Assembly (NCBI GenBank): GCA_000004695.1
Contig: CM000150.2
Span: 2,784,001 to 2,848,000 of the forward strand
Direction of reading: 5' to 3'
From: Dictyostelium discoideum
Taxonomy: Eukaryota
Length of the DNA: 64,000 nucleotides
A model generated the notes under the pieces. The model worked only from the letters and a program-made list of their open reading frames with translations, was not told the origin of the DNA and ran no database searches. The translations under genes and the position numbers were made by a program. Shown piece by piece: positions 23,320 through 34,160 of this stretch; within the stretch, counting starts at the first letter, position 1; each line of letters opens with the position of its first letter.

Positions 23320-24805
23320 TTAAAAATTTAATTTACGAATTGACATAAAAGTTGATAAAACTTCATCAGTAATTTTAGCTCTTGCTTCTTTATGACGAAT
23401 GATAATTTTATTCATAAGATCAATTAAAATTTGTTTAATTTCACCAGTCATCATTTTACCAGTTGAATATCTATGAGCGATATCTTTTAATTGTTCATCA
23501 TCTTCCAACATAAAAGTTAAATATTCATAAGTGATATCAACTGAAAGATCAGCACCATTTTTCTCTTGTTCTTCTTTAGTAGCACCACCACCAGAGAAAG
23601 CATGTTTCTTAATTTTATCTTTAACTTGATCTGGTGTATCAGAGAGATAAACTGCGGAATTTGTATCTGAAGCACTCATTTTGGTATTGTGACCTTGAAG
23701 TGCTGGGAAGAATTTACTATGAATAAGTGCTGGTTTTTGATGACCAATTCTATGTGCAATATCACGAGTCATTCTAAAGTATGGATCTTGATCAATTGCA
23801 CATGGAATTAAACAACGAATATTCTTAATCTCTGGATCATTCAATGGGAAAATATGTGGGAATGAATCTGGAAAACATGGTGCTGCTTGAACTGGTGGAA
23901 ATGTAAATTTACCAATTGCATCTGATTCTTTAAATCCAAAAATATTTTGAATCTTTTAAATTAATTAATTGAAATAAAATAAGAAATGAATTCTAAATTA
24001 GAATATACATAACCTAAAAAATTTTATGATTATCATAATAATAGTAATAATAATAATAATAATAATAATACTAATACTAAAAACATACTTGATTTAAATT
24101 AACACATCTTGCAATTTTAAGTACATTTGGATAAAGATGATGAATATATTCTAAATTTGAAAAAATAAAAGTTTTTTGAATATCAAAACCCAATGCAATG
24201 ATATCTTTAACATTGTTATGAGTAAATTTAATTGATTCTTCTAAAGTCATATCTTTCCATAAAAACTTTTCATCATTTGTCATTTGAACTACCAATGGTA
24301 CATTGAATGCATCTTGAAGATATTTTGTAAATGTAAATGGTAATAAATGTCCAAAATGTAAACTACCACTTGATGGTCCTCTACCTGTATATAAAAACCA
24401 TTTTTTACCTGATTCATGATGATCTAAAATTTCTTTTAAATCTCTTTTTTAAAATATAATAAAATTATTAATATATATTGATAATAAATATACATATAAT
24501 ATATGGTTATATCATATATTATAGTTAAATATTTTATTTTTATCATTATTATTGTGCTATTGTTGTTTTTTTATTATTATTGGAAATTACCTATGAGAGA
24601 AAAAGATTCCTCTACGTAAAAAGTGATGTGCTCTTTTACCAGTAACTTTTTCAAAACGAGCAATGAGTTCTTCACTAATAACAGTTGAACCAAATTGATC
24701 AACAAGTTTCATATAATCTACACTACCACCTGGTGCTGCTTCAACTTCCCATGGTGTAATAACTTGTTCTTTTGTTTCGTTTGTTGTTGGTGTTGTTTCA
24801 GTCAT
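23320..24805 (-). CDS. trpS: Cytoplasmic tryptophanyl-tRNA synthetase. Three exons: 24805..24591, 24443..24089 and 23952..23320.
   Basis: Colinear with eukaryotic WARS: ...[13 protein letters not shown], then DLKEIL...[22 protein letters not shown] (the HIGH-type motif), then ...[18 protein letters not shown] and KMSASD. The introns have GTAATT and GTATGT donors and AG acceptors. Confidence 0.9.
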
Positions 24806-26416: not shown

Positions 26417-27108
26417 TTTTTTAAAAAAAAAAAAAAAGAAAAATGCATTTCAAAATAATATTAAAAAAAAGACAAATCCAAAACCTAACTGGAGAACCAA
26501 TAAATCAATTTCGCCAATGTAAAAAATTTAAATTCAATACAAATTTTCAAGAAATAGAAAATCAAACAGCAGAATTTAAATTAGATCAATTAAGACAAGA
26601 GATATTTCAACTCCAACAATTACTAAAACAATTGTTATCAAATTGTATAGATTAAATAATTAAGAAACCACTAAAAATATTGGTTTAATTAAAATCATTA
26701 TAAAAAATAAAAAAATAAAAAAATAAAAAATTAAAATAAAATAAAATAAAATAAAATAAAATAAAATAAATAAAATAAAATAAAATAGAATAAAATAGAA
26801 TAAAATAGAATAAAATAAAATTAAATAAAAAAGCTATATTATTATTTAAAATGTTTAAATAATTTTTTTATTTCCATTTATAGCATACTTTTTTTTATTT
26901 TTTATTTTTTATTTTTTTTTTTGACACATTTCCTTCTCACTCGACCTCTCAACACTTTTCGGAACATTATTTATTAAAGTCTTTTTTTCTAATTTTTATT
27001 TAGTTTTAAATATAGTATCAATTCAATGAACATTGTTTTGTCAACATGACTCATAATATTAGTTTTTTATTTTTTAAAAATAAAAAATTCTTTGAAAATT
27101 ATTTTTTT

Positions 27109-27143
<35 letters not shown>

Positions 27144-27288
27144 TAAATTATTAAGAATTTTCAAAAAAAAAAAACAATAAAAAGAAAATTAATTTTCTTT
27201 TTTTTATTAATAACAATTTAAAATTATTAAAATCACTTGTTTATTTGTTTATTTACTTTATTTATTTATTTATTTATTTTAATTATAA

Positions 27289-28227
<939 letters not shown>

Positions 28228-29000
28228 AAAAAAAAAATTAAAATAAAACCAAACCACCATATTGTATAATTAATTTTTCTTTCTATTCGATTTATTATAT
28301 GATAAATTGTAATTCTTTTTTTTTTTTTTTTTTTTTTTAAAATTTATTTTAAAATTATACATTTTTTTTCTTTATTTTTTTTATTTTATAAAATTGAATG
28401 AATGAATTCCAATGTATGATTAATAATTATAAACATATTAACAGTATTAAGGAGAGAATTTTTTCTATTTTTCTTGAAAAATTAAATAAATAATGGTGAG
28501 GATGTAATTAATTGATATTTTGGTTGTCGTAAATTAAGATTTTTTAAAAATATCAAATATTTCTATTTTGATAATAATTTACAGGAGCCATTCTCGGTTG
28601 CATATGGAATAGATTTGATGCTATTTGGTTTTGAAACAGGTGAGGCAGAATATCTTGGAATTATAATACTTGGCATTTTTTTTTCTTTTTTTTAATTGTT
28701 ATTTGTTTTTTTACAGTTTGTTTTTAATGAAATAAAAATTATAAATTTCCTTCATTTTATACTTGATAATATTGTGAATCAAATAACACTGACTATTTTA
28801 AAAACTGACACCGGCACTGACACCTCTTGAAAAACCAAAATTATTTTTTTTTTAAAAACAAAATATCACAATAAACATCTCACTATTTTTTTATAGTCTA
28901 GAACAAAATTTCATCAACTACTTATGTACAAGTCTATTAGCGGCATTTGAATGAGACCTTAGCAAAGTGTATCACCCAATAAAAAAACATGAAACGTTTG

Positions 29001-29079
29001 CAAAGTGTGTCATCCAGTTGGTTTTCAATGACTCCCTGGCATGGTGGTTTATTGTAATAGTCTTCAAAAAAAATGGCGC
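29001..29079. repeat. Copy A of a dispersed ~80-bp repeat. It is followed by AAAAAAAATGGCGC and a 15-nt T-run.
   Basis: About 85% identical to 33501..33587 (...AAAGTGTGTCATCCAGTTGGTTTTCAATGACTCCCTGGCATGGTGGTTTATTGTAATAGTCTTCAAAA...). Confidence 0.5.
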
Positions 29080-29174
29080 TTTTTTTTTTTTTTTGAATTG
29101 GATAACGCAATTATTAGTTACTTCTCCTTGAGATGCTATATCTCATTTTATTAGTAGTTTTTTTACAGGGTTAG

Positions 29175-29205
<31 letters not shown>

Positions 29206-29886
29206 GTTTCGAATTTTGAATTGGATTATTACTTTTGATTAAACATCTTTTTTCTAAATCTTTTTTTATTTTATCGGCTTCGTGATTGATGTTGACGACA
29301 TATTTGAATTGATTTTTTTTTGAGTTTTGTCTACAATTTCGCTTATTTTTTGTAGGCATTTGTATTACTTAATATTTGTGGTGTTTTTTGTAATTTTCAT
29401 CTTATATTTCATCTTGCTCCGAATCGTTACCCGATTCTTCAACATCATCAAAATAAATTTCAAGCTATAGTATTATATTATTGGCATTTTTATTAATAAG
29501 TATATTATTATAAAATAAAATAAATAAAATAAAATAAAATAAAATAAATAAAATAAAAAAAGAAAAATAAAAAAAATAAAATAAAATAAAATATAAAATA
29601 TAAATTAAGAAAAAACATGTTAAAGCCTAGTAATCCAATATTATAATATATTTAATCGAAAAAAAAAAATGTTTGGGAAAAAAAAAAAAGATAATAGATT
29701 TTCAAATAAAATAACTCTCTGATGTTGTTATGGTTTAAATATCTTAAATTATTCACATTTATTAATTAAATCTTAAATAAAAATAAAATAAAAAAATTGA
29801 AAAAAAACATAATACCAATTTATTTAATAGTAATAGTTCAAACATATTGTGATTTTTATTTTATTCTTTCTAAATTTAACAGCAAA

Positions 29887-29917
<31 letters not shown>

Positions 29918-30531
29918 ATTCATTTTTTTTTTTTTTTAAATAACAATTTAGTTTTTTATATGAATTATTTAGATAGATTAATAGTCAAAAATATAAAGAG
30001 TGATATAAAATATAAAAATAATGAATGTAACTGTTGTAGGGAAATTTTAGAAAAAAAGATATTTAAATTAAAATAAAAAAAAGAAAAAAACGAAACTTTT
30101 TTCAATTTTAAAAAAAAAAAAAAAAAAAAAAAATTTGGTGTATACTTAAAATTAAATTGTTATTAAATTCTTAAACAACCAAATAATTGTGAATAATATA
30201 AAATAGTGAATTTTTACACTACACATATAAGCAGTGTATTTTAGTGAAAATTTAGAAAGGGAAATTCCAAAATAATTCCCCACAACAATAAACAATTGAT
30301 AATCAATCAATCATTGGTTCATTAGAACATTCTTCAAATAATTATCCATTTTTATCTTTATTCTCGCTCAATCATTCTTATTCCAATATATTAATTAAAT
30401 CTTAATGTAATTTAAAATAAAAAATAAAAATAAAAAAGATTAATTATAAAGTTTAAGTGATAAAAACAAATTATTTTTTTTTATTTGACTGTAAAGAATT
30501 ACCAAAGAAAAAAAATGAGGAGAGAATTATT

Positions 30532-31989
30532 TCAATGGATTTTAATATTTAATAAAGAAATTATTATTAAAATAATAACTAACAATTGATATGAAACAGA
30601 TTTACCATCAACTGAACCATTTGGATGATCATCATCACCAGTGGTAGAGGTATAAGTGGTTTCACCGGTGGTTGTAATTGAAGAAGAGGTTGAGGTTGTA
30701 ACTGAAGAAGAGGTTGAGGATGTTGTTGTTGTTTTTTTAGAGCAAACTGTTTTAGAACCAATAGATATAAAACAATCTTTACAAATTGGATTTTTTTCAA
30801 AAATCTCACTACCATCATTATTTGATGTAAATGAAATTGATGAGCCTGTGCAATCAATTAATTGATCATCATTTGAATTTCCGGAATATTTAAAAGTATT
30901 GGAATCGTACATTACATTTGAATTCAATGATTTGATGATTGGTTTGTTATTACTATTTGAAAATGTGTTTGAACTGAATGAAATCATAGAGTTATTTGAT
31001 TCTGCCAAAACACCATCAAAGTTATTAAAAGTATTTAACATAATTAAAGTAATATTTACGTTATTTGAAATTTTTAACAAAGAAGCAGGAGTTGAACTTT
31101 TTGGACCTATAATTTGATTAAAAGTTGAAGATTCAATTGATATGTCCTTTGCATCGATAAAATATAACTTTTGGGTTTTAGTGCCAAAAGAAACTTGATT
31201 AAAAGAACAACCAATTAATTTTTTTTTTGAATCTATCTCTTCAACAATAAAAGAATCGTCAAAGGATACTGAATTGAATTTTGTAAATGTAAAAGATGTT
31301 GTGTATTTTTTGCCAAAAAAGGAATATTCTCTAAAAGTAACGTTTTCAAAAATTGAGTTTTCAAAACTAATTGAATTTACTTCTTTTGATTCCCCAAATC
31401 CTGTGAATCCCAAGTTTGTAGAATTTAAAAATTTACATGTATCAAAAATATATTGTGTTTCCATCTTTCCATATGTATCTGAATATAAGATGTGATAGTT
31501 AAGGCTGAAAAAGTTTACAAAGGCAACATTGGATACTTTTAAAAATGTTTTTGAAGAAGGTGGATTTTGACCTTTACTATCAAAATCAATCAAATAATGT
31601 ATGAGATCAGATCCATCAATAATGACATCATTAGAGTTTGAAGTGTATGTTGAAATTGTTATATGTAAACCCAATCCACTTTGTATATAATTTACTTTAC
31701 CAGAATATGTTCCATCAGCTAATTTCAAAACCAATGTAGAATTATAGTTTTCTGGTTTGCTATTATATTCATGGAAATAATTCACAGCGTCCACAATATT
31801 GTTACATGAGTCTTCAAAAGAACTACCACATTCACTTGAATATGAATTGGTTTTGTTAGAATCAACAATTAAATTTAAAATTGTAGGGTTGGCATTTGGA
31901 CTAGAAACTAAATTTGAACTGGATTTAATAGCAGAAACAAATAAAACACAAAGTAATAATATGATAATATTAAATTTTCTTGATAACAT
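30532..31989 (-). CDS. Predicted secreted, probably GPI-anchored, cell-surface protein with a parallel beta-helix-like repeat region.
   Basis: 485-aa ORF. The N-terminal signal peptide is MLSRKFNIIILLLCVLFVSA. Degenerate repeats of about 22 aa carry N/S/T-x-F. A Ser/Thr-rich stalk (TTTSSTSSSVTTSTSSSITTTGETTYTSTTG) is followed by a short C-terminal hydrophobic tail. Confidence 0.55.
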   Translation of the reverse strand: MLSRKFNIIILLLCVLFVSAIKSSSNLVSSPNANPTILNLIVDSNKTNSYSSECGSSFEDSCNNIVDAVNYFHEYNSKPENYNSTLVLKLADGTYSGKVNYIQSGLGLHITISTYTSNSNDVIIDGSDLIHYLIDFDSKGQNPPSSKTFLKVSNVAFVNFFSLNYHILYSDTYGKMETQYIFDTCKFLNSTNLGFTGFGESKEVNSISFENSIFENVTFREYSFFGKKYTTSFTFTKFNSVSFDDSFIVEEIDSKKKLIGCSFNQVSFGTKTQKLYFIDAKDISIESSTFNQIIGPKSSTPASLLKISNNVNITLIMLNTFNNFDGVLAESNNSMISFSSNTFSNSNNKPIIKSLNSNVMYDSNTFKYSGNSNDDQLIDCTGSSISFTSNNDGSEIFEKNPICKDCFISIGSKTVCSKKTTTTSSTSSSVTTSTSSSITTTGETTYTSTTGDDDHPNGSVDGKSVSYQLLVIILIIISLLNIKIH

Positions 31990-32100
31990 TTTTTTTTAAT
32001 TTTTTTTTTTTTTTATAATTAAATAAATGATTTGATGTTTTTTTTTTTTTTTTTTTTTAATTTATACTAAAATTTTCTTGATGTTGAAAAAAAAAGAATT

Positions 32101-32575
32101 CTTATTTTTTTTCTATAATCTTGGAGAATAAAGAATAAAAATCGGATACCCAACCACACTTTGAGATAATAATTTTTAAATTTACCTAAATAAGCCATAA
32201 TTTCCGAAATAAGCCATAATTTAAAATTTTTTCCTTTTTTTTTTCCTCTATTTTTTTTTTTTTTTTTTTTCTTTGAAAGGAAACCACCAAAATTTTGAAT
32301 TTTATTTGAAAATGTTATTTTTTATAAATTGGTAAAGAAAAATGATTTAAAAATTTTTTTGGGTAAATGGAGATAACATTTAGAACACGTTTCAAATTAT
32401 TCAAAAATTTTATTGTTCTTCAAAATCTTTTTCATTTTTTTTTCCTATAATCTTGGAGAATAAAGAACAAAAAAATGGGTATTCAAACACACTTTCAGAT
32501 AATAATTTTTAGATATAATTTAAAAATTTTTTTTTTTTTCTTGCAAAGGAAATCACCCAAAAAAAAAAAAAAAAT
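32101..32575. repeat. Tandem duplication with a period of about 330 bp, diverged, in the intergenic/promoter region upstream of the minus-strand gene at 30532..31989.
   Basis: Unit 1 (32105..32330) and unit 2 (32437..32575) share CTATAATCTTGGAGAATAAAGAA...CACACTTT(G/C)AGATAATAATTTTTA(A/G)AT, then a T-run and CTT(TG/GC)AAAGGAAA(C/T)CACC(A/C)AAAA. Confidence 0.6.
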
Positions 32576-32706
32576 AAAAAATTTAGTCTTTTCAAGGGAA
32601 AAAAAAATTAGAAATTTATTATTAATGTTGCAGGGAAATTTCAATAAAATTTCTTACATTACATAAAAAAATAAAAAATAAAAAAAAAAGAATTCATCTC
32701 AACATC

Positions 32707-32738
<32 letters not shown>

Positions 32739-33162
32739 AAAATCAAAAATCAAAAAAGATATTGCCAGTGATAATATTAGTTCCAATTCAAAAAAAAAAA
32801 AAAAAAAAAAAAAAAAGCTTGTGATAATAATAAACTCACATACAATATTTATTTTTTAATTATTGTTTTTTTTTTTAAAAAAAAATGGCATTTTTAAGTA
32901 AATCAAATGATAATACAAAAGTATCAATGGAGATTAGAAAAATCAATCAAAGATGATAAAAGGACATTTTTAGGGTATTACACAAGTACTTTGAGCAGGT
33001 GAGTCTGTAAATCAACAATTTTCAAACAATTAAAAATTTTACAAGAAAATGGTCTTTGGACAACAAAAGAGTTACAAGAATTTAGTAATACAATTTCTTT
33101 CTTTTTTTTATTTTACTTTAAAAAGTTAAAAATCTGGAAATTTTCTGATTAACTTGGGTTCC

Positions 33163-33201
<39 letters not shown>

Positions 33202-33500
33202 TTTTTTTTATTTTATTTTTATTTTTTTTTATAATTTATAGAGAGTACTGAGTGAATTATTGTATTTTTTGAGATGTTTGGGAAGTGTTATTGCGTGAAG
33301 TGGTGAGTTCCATTGTCTGAATTGTAATAGTTTTAGCGAGATTAATGAATCTACGCAAAATTTTCAAAACGAAACAAAAAATAAATTACAATAAAGTAAA
33401 AAGATGGCTTTTAAAATAGTTTATTTATTTATTTTTTTGTTTTGTATGTCTTTTTATATGAAAAATGAAATAATCAAAAAAAGCAATTGTTTTTTTCCAA

Positions 33501-33587
33501 AAAAAAATGGCGGGTTATGAAAGTGTGCAATCCAGTTTGTTTTCAATGACTCCTTAGCATAGTGGTTTATTGTAATTGTCTCCAAAA
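33501..33587. repeat. Copy B of the dispersed ~80-bp repeat. It begins AAAAAAAAATGGCGGG and runs into the tRNA-like segment.
   Basis: Aligned by eye with 29001..29079. Confidence 0.5.
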
Positions 33588-33633
33588 CGTTAGAAGTTAG
33601 CAGTTGGTCCAGGGTTCAACTCCCTGAGGGGTC
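33548..33633 (+). other. tRNA-like sequence, possibly a tRNA pseudogene or tRNA-derived element, with a Pol III-type T-run terminator at 33634..33640.
   Basis: A perfect T-arm (CAGGG TTCAACT CCCTG) is followed by a 7-nt acceptor 3' strand AGGGGTC, then TTTTTTT. The candidate 5' acceptor GACTCCT lies 86 nt upstream and pairs with it using one G-U. I could not fold canonical D and anticodon arms, so this is not called as a functional tRNA. Confidence 0.3.
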
Positions 33634-34160
33634 TTTTTTTAAGAAAATTTTTAAGATCGCAGGTTCAATTCCCCTAAAATTTAATGTATTACCATGATTC
33701 TTAATATTATTAATATTATTTATTATGATTTTTAAAAACTTTTAACATTAAACAATCACCAAAAATCTACAGGTCGAAAAATCAATTGTCCAAATTAAAG
33801 AAATAATACCAGAAAAAATTGTAATTAAAATCATCCCAATAGTAATAATAAACCTGAATAAACTACTATTTTTGCTAAAGACCCAGATCTTGCAAATAAT
33901 TAATAGCATTTGTAAAAGTGGTTTTTTTTTAGACAAATACAATGTACATTTTAATTTAATTTAATGTAGAGCGTCTAAAAAAAAAAAAAAATTTTGGCGA
34001 TAGTGATACCAGTTTGGATATATATTCTAATGTTGGTCATTCCGTAACTAGTAACTCACCTAAATATCAAAAAAATAATTTAAACAATGATATAAAAAAT
34101 TTATAACCTATAATTTGAAAAGCTATAGAGATTAAAGGGGTTATGCTATTGAAATTTTAT

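Follow-up and report, generated by a model that had tools for sequence, protein, structure and literature searches.

A tRNA-Trp(CCA) gene with a small upstream array of its own partial 5' copies, probably split by a 4.4-kb insertion, in Dictyostelium discoideum

Tandem partial copies of a tRNA gene close to its 5' side have been described for plastid trnF(GAA). The pseudogene arrays at that gene, found in Brassicaceae, Solanaceae, Asteraceae and others, contain 1 to 7 copies of 32 to 73 bp, with a variable copy number and fast turnover, and the copies consist mostly of the anticodon domain without acceptor stems (PMC3786074). The tRNA genes of D. discoideum carry an external B box in about 80% of cases (PMC5911963), and seven TrpCCA genes, each 87 bp long with an intron, are known from AX4 (PMC5391098, Tables S1 and S2). 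The 5' flanks of tRNA genes are also the targets of the retrotransposon TRE5-A, which integrates 47±3 bp upstream (PMC5391098). The 5' end of the TRE5 element faces the tRNA's 5' end (PMC3159450), and the target-site duplications of TRE5-A measure 10 to 16 bp (PMC9012585). TRE5-A terminates in oligo(A). For every AX4 TrpCCA gene listed on chromosome 1, TRE5-A(bsr) contigs were mapped in at least one culture (PMC5391098).

The locus reported here lies in a 64-kb stretch of DNA, called the window, that was analyzed as a whole. Like the plastid trnF arrays, it has tandem partial tRNA copies close 5' of a functional gene. It differs from them in that the gene is a nuclear Pol III gene rather than a plastid one, and in that its units retain the 5' acceptor strand as well as the D arm/A box. 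The reading that we consider well supported, and hold with good though not complete confidence, is that one of two related sequence copies (copy B) is part of a tRNA-Trp(CCA) gene, that the other (copy A) is a dead member of an array of partial copies upstream of this gene, and that the array was split by a 4.4-kb insertion in the AX4 lineage.

The window consists of AT-rich nuclear DNA of dictyostelid type, in which a polyubiquitin gene of four units and poly-N/Q open reading frames are found, and it matches contig JBTAPE010000039.1 (GCA_054883475.1) at 99.8 to 100% over the aligned stretches. It was compared with L010, the syntenic locus in a diverged assembly labeled 'D. discoideum' (GCA_054859385.1), the flanks of which are 85 to 95% identical to the window. 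The gene order in L010 is tryptophanyl-tRNA synthetase (TrpRS), a 176-aa gene, polyubiquitin, a 100-aa gene, tRNA-Trp, and a 2202-aa gene. Searches for further orthologous loci with the 2048-aa neighbor protein found none, and those with the TrpRS exon gave no Dictyostelium hits. The P0006 and P0074 searches led to paralogous loci without tRNA genes.

Copy A (28981-29069) and copy B (33499-33587) were aligned by BLASTN without gaps at 82% identity over 89 nt. The gapless global alignment contained 73/89 identical positions (38/49 in the flank part and 35/40 in the tRNA part), and the core (29002-29069 against 33520-33587) reached 88% identity across 68 nt. The 64-kb window contained no further copy that aligned comparably well. 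These data bear out the initial annotation, which had described two diverged copies of an about 80-bp element at 29001-29079 and 33501-33587. Its coordinates were approximately right; the motif AAAAAAAATGGCG, which it had placed beside the copies, lies inside both of these ranges, and the homology begins about 20 nt upstream of 29001. This 13-nt motif has exactly two exact occurrences in 64 kb, one at the 3' end of copy A (29066-29078) and one at the 5' end of copy B (33500-33512). The number expected from shuffled sequences was 0.04 per window, and two or more matches were obtained in 0/100 shuffles. The left AAAAAAAATGGCG is followed directly by a run of 15 T at 29080-29094, confirming the motif-plus-T-run layout that had been noted after copy A. 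The raised G+C content reported around both copies was likewise confirmed, with values of 0.29 at 28800-29199 and 0.255 to 0.275 at 33400-33799 compared to 0.115 to 0.155 in the neighboring spacer.

Copy B is the 5' flank together with the 5' half (positions 1-38) of a bona fide intron-containing tRNA-Trp(CCA) gene, which had gone unrecognized in the initial annotation. The features of this gene are as follows.

33548-33634, plus strand: functional tRNA-Trp(CCA) gene, 87 nt (ARAGORN; Rfam tRNA model)
33555-33565, plus strand: A box TAGCATAGTGG at +8, internal to the tRNA-Trp gene
33582-33584, plus strand: anticodon CCA (ARAGORN/Rfam gene call)
within 33586-33599, plus strand: intron of 13 nt beside the anticodon
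33613-33623, plus strand: B box GGTTCAACTCC (match to GGTTCRANYCC)
33635-33641, plus strand: T7 run, Pol III terminator, immediately 3' of the gene (read from the sequence)
33662-33672, plus strand: external B box GGTTCAATTCC, 28 nt downstream of the gene (match to GGTTCRANYCC)

The assignment is supported by the following data. The Rfam covariance model RF00005 gave 44.8 bits for 33548-33634 against a gathering score of 29, and ARAGORN called the same interval as Trp-CCA. The motif GGTTCRANYCC was matched at only two sites in the 64-kb window, and these are the internal and the external B box of this gene. The reverse complement of 33589-33612 is exactly the sequence of a published primer for the TrpCCA family, and the gene is 97% identical to the tRNA-Trp gene of L010. 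Copy B is one of the TrpCCA genes of D. discoideum and agrees with them in the 87-nt length, the intron after the anticodon, the A and B boxes, the T-run and the external B box, and no difference from them was found. Transcription by RNA polymerase III would be directed by the internal A and B boxes and would end at the T-run. The external B box of the window is absent at the orthologous position in L010 (9847-9900), where only a T4 run lies 3' of the tRNA-Trp gene. The gene for tryptophanyl-tRNA synthetase (window 23320-24805, minus strand; 400 aa, two introns, unique splice solution) was located about 8.7 kb from the tRNA-Trp gene, and the same neighborhood is retained in L010.

Copy A and the units that resemble it occupy the following positions.

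28953-28990, plus strand: array unit w3, degenerate tRNA-Trp 5' end (GAGACCTTAGCAAAGTG...) with an A-rich tail; 14/17 to the tRNA 17-mer
28991-29029, plus strand: array unit w4, corresponding to the 'upstream flank' in copy A; matches the tRNA 17-mer with 5 mismatches, homologous to 33509-33547
29030-29069, plus strand: unit w5, core of copy A, a truncated tRNA-Trp pseudogene limited to tRNA positions 1 to about 38
33509-33547, plus strand: array unit b(-1), immediate 5' flank of the tRNA-Trp gene and 'upstream' part of copy B; homologous to w4, aligns to L010 unit u5

Copy A differs from the TrpCCA genes in having only positions 1-38, with which it cannot be a tRNA gene. Its core is 35/40 identical to the functional 5' half, and beyond the anticodon loop there is no homology. 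The five differences are all on the A side, as copy B and L010 are identical at these positions, and they include A14G and the change of the anticodon-equivalent triplet at 29064-29066 from CCA to TCA. ARAGORN made no call, and Rfam gave no hit to tRNA or any other family at E≤10 in 28600-29400; what was returned near copy A was noise (DdR15 with 20 bits, where the gathering score is 70, and E = 6.3; mir-2059 with 17.9, where it is 90). At a relaxed threshold around both copies, only tRNA was returned. No B box was found near copy A at 30 to 60 bp from the A box, both GGTTCRANYCC sites of the window being at copy B. The RNA of copy A from +1 to the T-run had no stable fold and was weaker than shuffled sequence (z = +1.4). 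A remnant of the 3' half, the terminator or the external B box was not detectable downstream of copy A, where the alignment score was 23 against a background mean of 23.1. The interval 29095-29225 had been read by eye as a decayed tRNA 3' half with terminator and external B box, and this reading was rejected since its score of 23 equals the background (mean 23.1). A metagenome scan with the tRNA 5' half gave no hits.

From the missing B box, Rfam hit and 3' half, the five A-specific substitutions and the fold result, it was deduced that copy A is a dead fragment, most plausibly a non-functional and decaying partial duplicate consisting of about 49 nt of flank and tRNA positions 1-38. The gene model ACTFIT_007837 (503 aa; GCA_054883475.1), at L001 6001-9424 or about 28566-31989 of the window, spans 3.4 kb across copy A. 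Its extra terminal exon is probably spurious and the model wrong, since the AX4 gene DDB_G0270532 is a single exon of 485 aa.

The relationship between the units was deduced mainly with the aid of L010. In that locus, 5.5 tandem units of 33 nt abut the 5' side of the tRNA-Trp gene without interruption, with the consensus TTTCACCCCAAAAAATGACTCCTTAGCATAGTG (Tandem Repeats Finder, score 163). At the start of each unit stands a copy of the tRNA 5' 17-mer, made up of the 5' acceptor strand and the A-box-bearing D arm. Tandem Repeats Finder did not detect the array in the window itself. On the plus strand of the 64 kb, sites with at most five mismatches to the tRNA 5' 17-mer were found only at 28953, 28991, 29030 and 33548, and the window units at 28953, 28991, 29030 and 33509 align mutually and with the tRNA 5' exon. 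Unit w3 is one of only three window hits with at most three mismatches to the 17-mer (expected 0); its local alignment to the tRNA 5' exon was significant by shuffles (p<0.0005), and it aligns to L010 unit u2. The first 28 nt of w4 are identical to w3 at 23/28 positions (by eye). The unit boundary consists of an A-run followed by a T / G.C.. motif, and A8TGGCG, a unit junction, is present on both sides of the insertion described below.

The array at this locus comprises four to five units of 33 to 45 nt directly abutting the tRNA-Trp gene. As judged from these alignments, copies A and B are best taken as belonging to a short series of partial tRNA-Trp 5' copies, arranged head to tail and directly upstream of the gene, in keeping with the tandem-derived layout that the initial annotation had suspected, and the 'upstream flank' common to both would itself be an older tRNA-derived unit. 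Unit w4 also gave a local match to the tRNA intron and the 3' strand of the anticodon stem (AAACGTT.G.AAGT...CAGTTGGT; p = 0.0055). Since w4 matches the intron/3' region though its first 28 nt look 5'-exon-like, the array may derive from longer, possibly whole-gene, copies. The origin of w4 and b(-1) is accordingly ambiguous, as both are 5'-exon-like by transitive homology, yet carry the intron/3' match. The birth and turnover of the array could have proceeded by slipped-strand events or unequal exchange, with the A-run that precedes the gene and the anticodon-loop AAAA as partners; the array structure is the observed part of this scheme, and the mechanism is deduced from it.

No 5' array accompanies the tRNA-Cys genes of L007 and L009, so the array is not a general feature. 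In these loci (L007 6590-6640; L009 7243-7290), the 3' end of tRNA-Cys with its T-run is repeated once downstream (TTCGGAACTTTCGTTTTT ... TTCCGAACTTCGTATTTTTTT), and this repeat hints that partial duplications of tRNA ends may recur in this genome. No description of arrays of the tRNA-Trp type in Dictyostelium was found in the literature searched, which did not extend to the older Dictyostelium tRNA-gene papers, so that a prior description is possible. A nuclear tRNA gene with a tandem array of copies of its own 5' part, persisting with unit turnover in two diverged Dictyostelium genomes, would be a nuclear counterpart of the plastid trnF pseudogene arrays and a possible marker of recombination or slippage at Pol III genes.

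The distance between copies A and B in the window is due to an insertion relative to L010, with the following features.

29066-29078, plus strand: left copy of AAAAAAAATGGCG, at the junction of w5 and the next unit; probable target-site duplication (two exact copies, 0.04 expected)
29080-33499, no strand assigned: 4.42-kb insertion relative to L010, splitting the array; window 28833-33546 is only 233 bp in L010
29080-29094, plus strand: T15 run, on the minus strand an A15 tail at the distal insertion end (from the sequence)
29404-33096, no strand assigned: host segmental duplicate inside the insertion, 3.7 kb (homology to paralogous loci)
30532-31989, minus strand: DDB_G0270532, 485 aa, secreted right-handed beta-helix/pectin-lyase-like family; 100% identical to AX4 DDB_G0270532
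32886-33096, plus strand: G-alpha exon-1 pseudogene fragment, 85.6 to 92% identical to the first part of the L011 and L012 G-alpha genes; frame broken
33500-33512, plus strand: right copy of AAAAAAAATGGCG, starting 48 bp upstream of tRNA +1 (two exact copies, 0.04 expected)

The middle part of the insertion (29404-33096), which comprises DDB_G0270532 with its flanks and the broken G-alpha fragment, was 88 to 94% identical to L012 (the DDB_G0283215 locus), 90 to 93% to L002, and 83 to 88% to L003, L004 and L011. The ends of this homology are sharp and are the same in all paralogous loci compared, and the outer parts of the insertion (29095-29403 and 33097-33499) match none of these loci. In L012, the region corresponding to the intergenic site of the G-alpha fragment holds a hAT-transposase-like gene.

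When 29079-33512 was deleted in silico, the resulting allele aligned unit for unit with L010 (w3 with u2, w4 with u3, w5 with u4, b(-1) with u5, and tRNA with tRNA). The proposed order of events would begin with a tandem array in which w4 and w5 neighbored b(-1) and the tRNA 5' half. In the AX4 lineage, a 4.4-kb host segmental duplicate, with DDB_G0270532 and the G-alpha fragment, would then have been inserted into the array 48 bp upstream of the tRNA, and the insertion would have duplicated the 13-bp unit junction AAAAAAAATGGCG. An insertion with duplication of the junction accounts for the presence of AAAAAAAATGGCG after copy A and before copy B, which had been described as circular permutation, and for the 4.5 kb between the two copies. 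That the array preceded the insertion was deduced from the relative identities, which are 82% for A and B, 92 to 94% for the insert and its closest paralogue, and 13/13 for the 13-mer. Only two genomes carry the locus, and an insertion in AX4 is preferred to a precise deletion in L010 on grounds of parsimony and the flanking 13-mer. Two pre-existing unit junctions, instead of a target-site duplication, could also account for the exact 13-mer; the probability of a 13/13 match at 82% identity per site is then about 0.08. By eye, GCAATTGTTTTTTTCC before the right 13-mer had been considered as an anticodon-arm remnant; it was rejected as it was not in the top 12 of 667 A-run contexts.

Three other origins of copy A were weighed against its assignment as an array unit. 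A and B might be a single target duplication of about 90 bp that was made together with the 4.4-kb insertion by a replication-based template switch, in which case they would not be older array units. Both copies do flank the insertion as direct repeats, and its junctions lie in A-runs that would serve as microhomology. The identity of 82% between A and B (5/40 substitutions on the A branch in the tRNA part), compared to 92 to 94% between the insert and its paralogue, makes the A/B pair look older than the insertion, and without the insertion the unit count is one-to-one with that of L010; we regard a template switch as improbable. Copy A as the remnant of a second complete tRNA-Trp gene, with the 3' half of one member of a gene pair destroyed, has precedents in the tRNA gene pairs of AX4 such as TrpCCA-5 and TrpCCA-4, which are 3.3 kb apart on chromosome 1 (PMC5391098, Table S2). 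Against such a pair, nothing of a 3' half, terminator or external B box was detected downstream of A (score 23 against 23.1), L010 has one gene and an array, and in copy A the homology breaks off at the anticodon loop, where the next unit junction follows at once, which leaves a second gene very improbable. The initial annotation had alternatively proposed a family of unannotated Pol III-transcribed small RNAs. An A-box-like TGGCATGGTGG, the T15 run 10 nt after the tRNA-like part and the raised local G+C are what would be expected of an independent Pol III small RNA gene or a new member of such a family. The proposal was not upheld, and we give it hardly any credence, as copy A has neither a B box nor an Rfam match at E≤10, folds more weakly than shuffled sequence, has lost the invariant A14 and ends in the anticodon loop, while the anticodon-arm part is gone from the orthologous L010 unit and only two copies exist in the window.

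A further question is how the insertion came to be placed. The initial annotation had likened the arrangement to the remnant of a tRNA-gene/retroelement landing site. The tRNA relationship was found, and so was a geometry like that of TRE5 landing sites (48 bp upstream, 13-bp flanking duplication, distal T15), but neither the DNA between the copies nor that beside them contains retroelement sequence. It is conceivable, if unlikely in our estimate, that the integration machinery of TRE5, a non-LTR retrotransposon, placed the 4.4-kb insertion, with the 13-mer as a true target-site duplication and T15 as the oligo(A) tail. This could have occurred by target-primed reverse transcription of a non-TRE transcript, by repair of staggered nicks of the TRE5 endonuclease with captured DNA, or through an old TRE5 copy with a replaced interior. 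The right end of the insertion (33499) is 48 bp from tRNA +1 (33548), within the TRE5-A range of 47±3 bp, although this position also follows automatically from a 39-nt unit and a 9-nt A-run. The T15 at the tRNA-distal junction fits an element whose 5' end faces that of the tRNA, and the 13-bp length of the flanking repeat is within the 10 to 16 bp of TRE5-A duplications. A run of at least 10 T starting right after the repeat has a chance of about 0.006 (13 such runs in 4.47 kb of both spacers), AAAAAAAATGGCG itself is expected 0.04 times per window, and the ends 29095-29403 and 33097-33499 have no match in the paralogous loci. In these respects (the -48 position, the 13-bp flanking duplication and the tRNA-distal oligo(A)/T-run), the locus resembles insertions of TRE5-A, TRE5-B and TRE5-C. 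It differs from them in that the inserted DNA is host sequence without ORF1/ORF2, in which no A-, B- or C-module signature could be made out from the ORFs, the comparison of the two ends, the 3' fold and two TRE5-A primers.

Several further data argue against TRE5. Besides DDB_G0270532, there is no ORF of at least 80 aa between the two spacer-bounding genes and hence no reverse transcriptase/endonuclease ORF. Throughout its middle 3.7 kb, the insertion follows the order of its genomic paralogues, with promoters, divergently oriented gene fragments and long homopolymer runs, unlike a single mRNA copy. A B-module-like repeat common to both insertion ends was not found, the 86 nt that precede the tail contain no significant hairpin (z = -0.87) whereas TRE5-A needs the C-module hairpin, and the endogenous TRE5-A primers Rep-190 and Rep-109Q are both absent from the window. 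The combined proposal, that 4.4 kb of host DNA bearing DDB_G0270532 was installed at a TRE5 landing site by retrotransposon machinery and that, separately, tRNA-Trp genes may carry an undescribed, persistent 5'-exon minisatellite, is offered as speculation that we ourselves doubt. The segmental duplicate does carry a gene, its position is exactly that of a TRE5 landing site, and its junctions are TRE5-like. If the proposal were true, it would represent a retrotransposon-mediated gene duplication into a tRNA 'safe haven', and TRE elements would have the capacity to move host genes within a genome that is very compact.

The module of the polyubiquitin gene and the 100-aa gene (window 26966-28840) was also found in two other assemblies, in a wholly different genomic context (L007 7682-9589; L009 7700-9539), and on its right side the homology gives out just where the tRNA-derived array begins. 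Within this module, a block of CTGAC(A/C)C repeats (cactgactattttaaaaactgacaccggcactgacacc) at window 28789-28830 lies just upstream of the ~100-aa minus-strand gene and is conserved in four genomes, with the other occurrences at about 9478-9520 in L010, 9530-9570 in L007 and 9500-9545 in L009. The block is probably a promoter element and is partly responsible for the raised G+C beside copy A.
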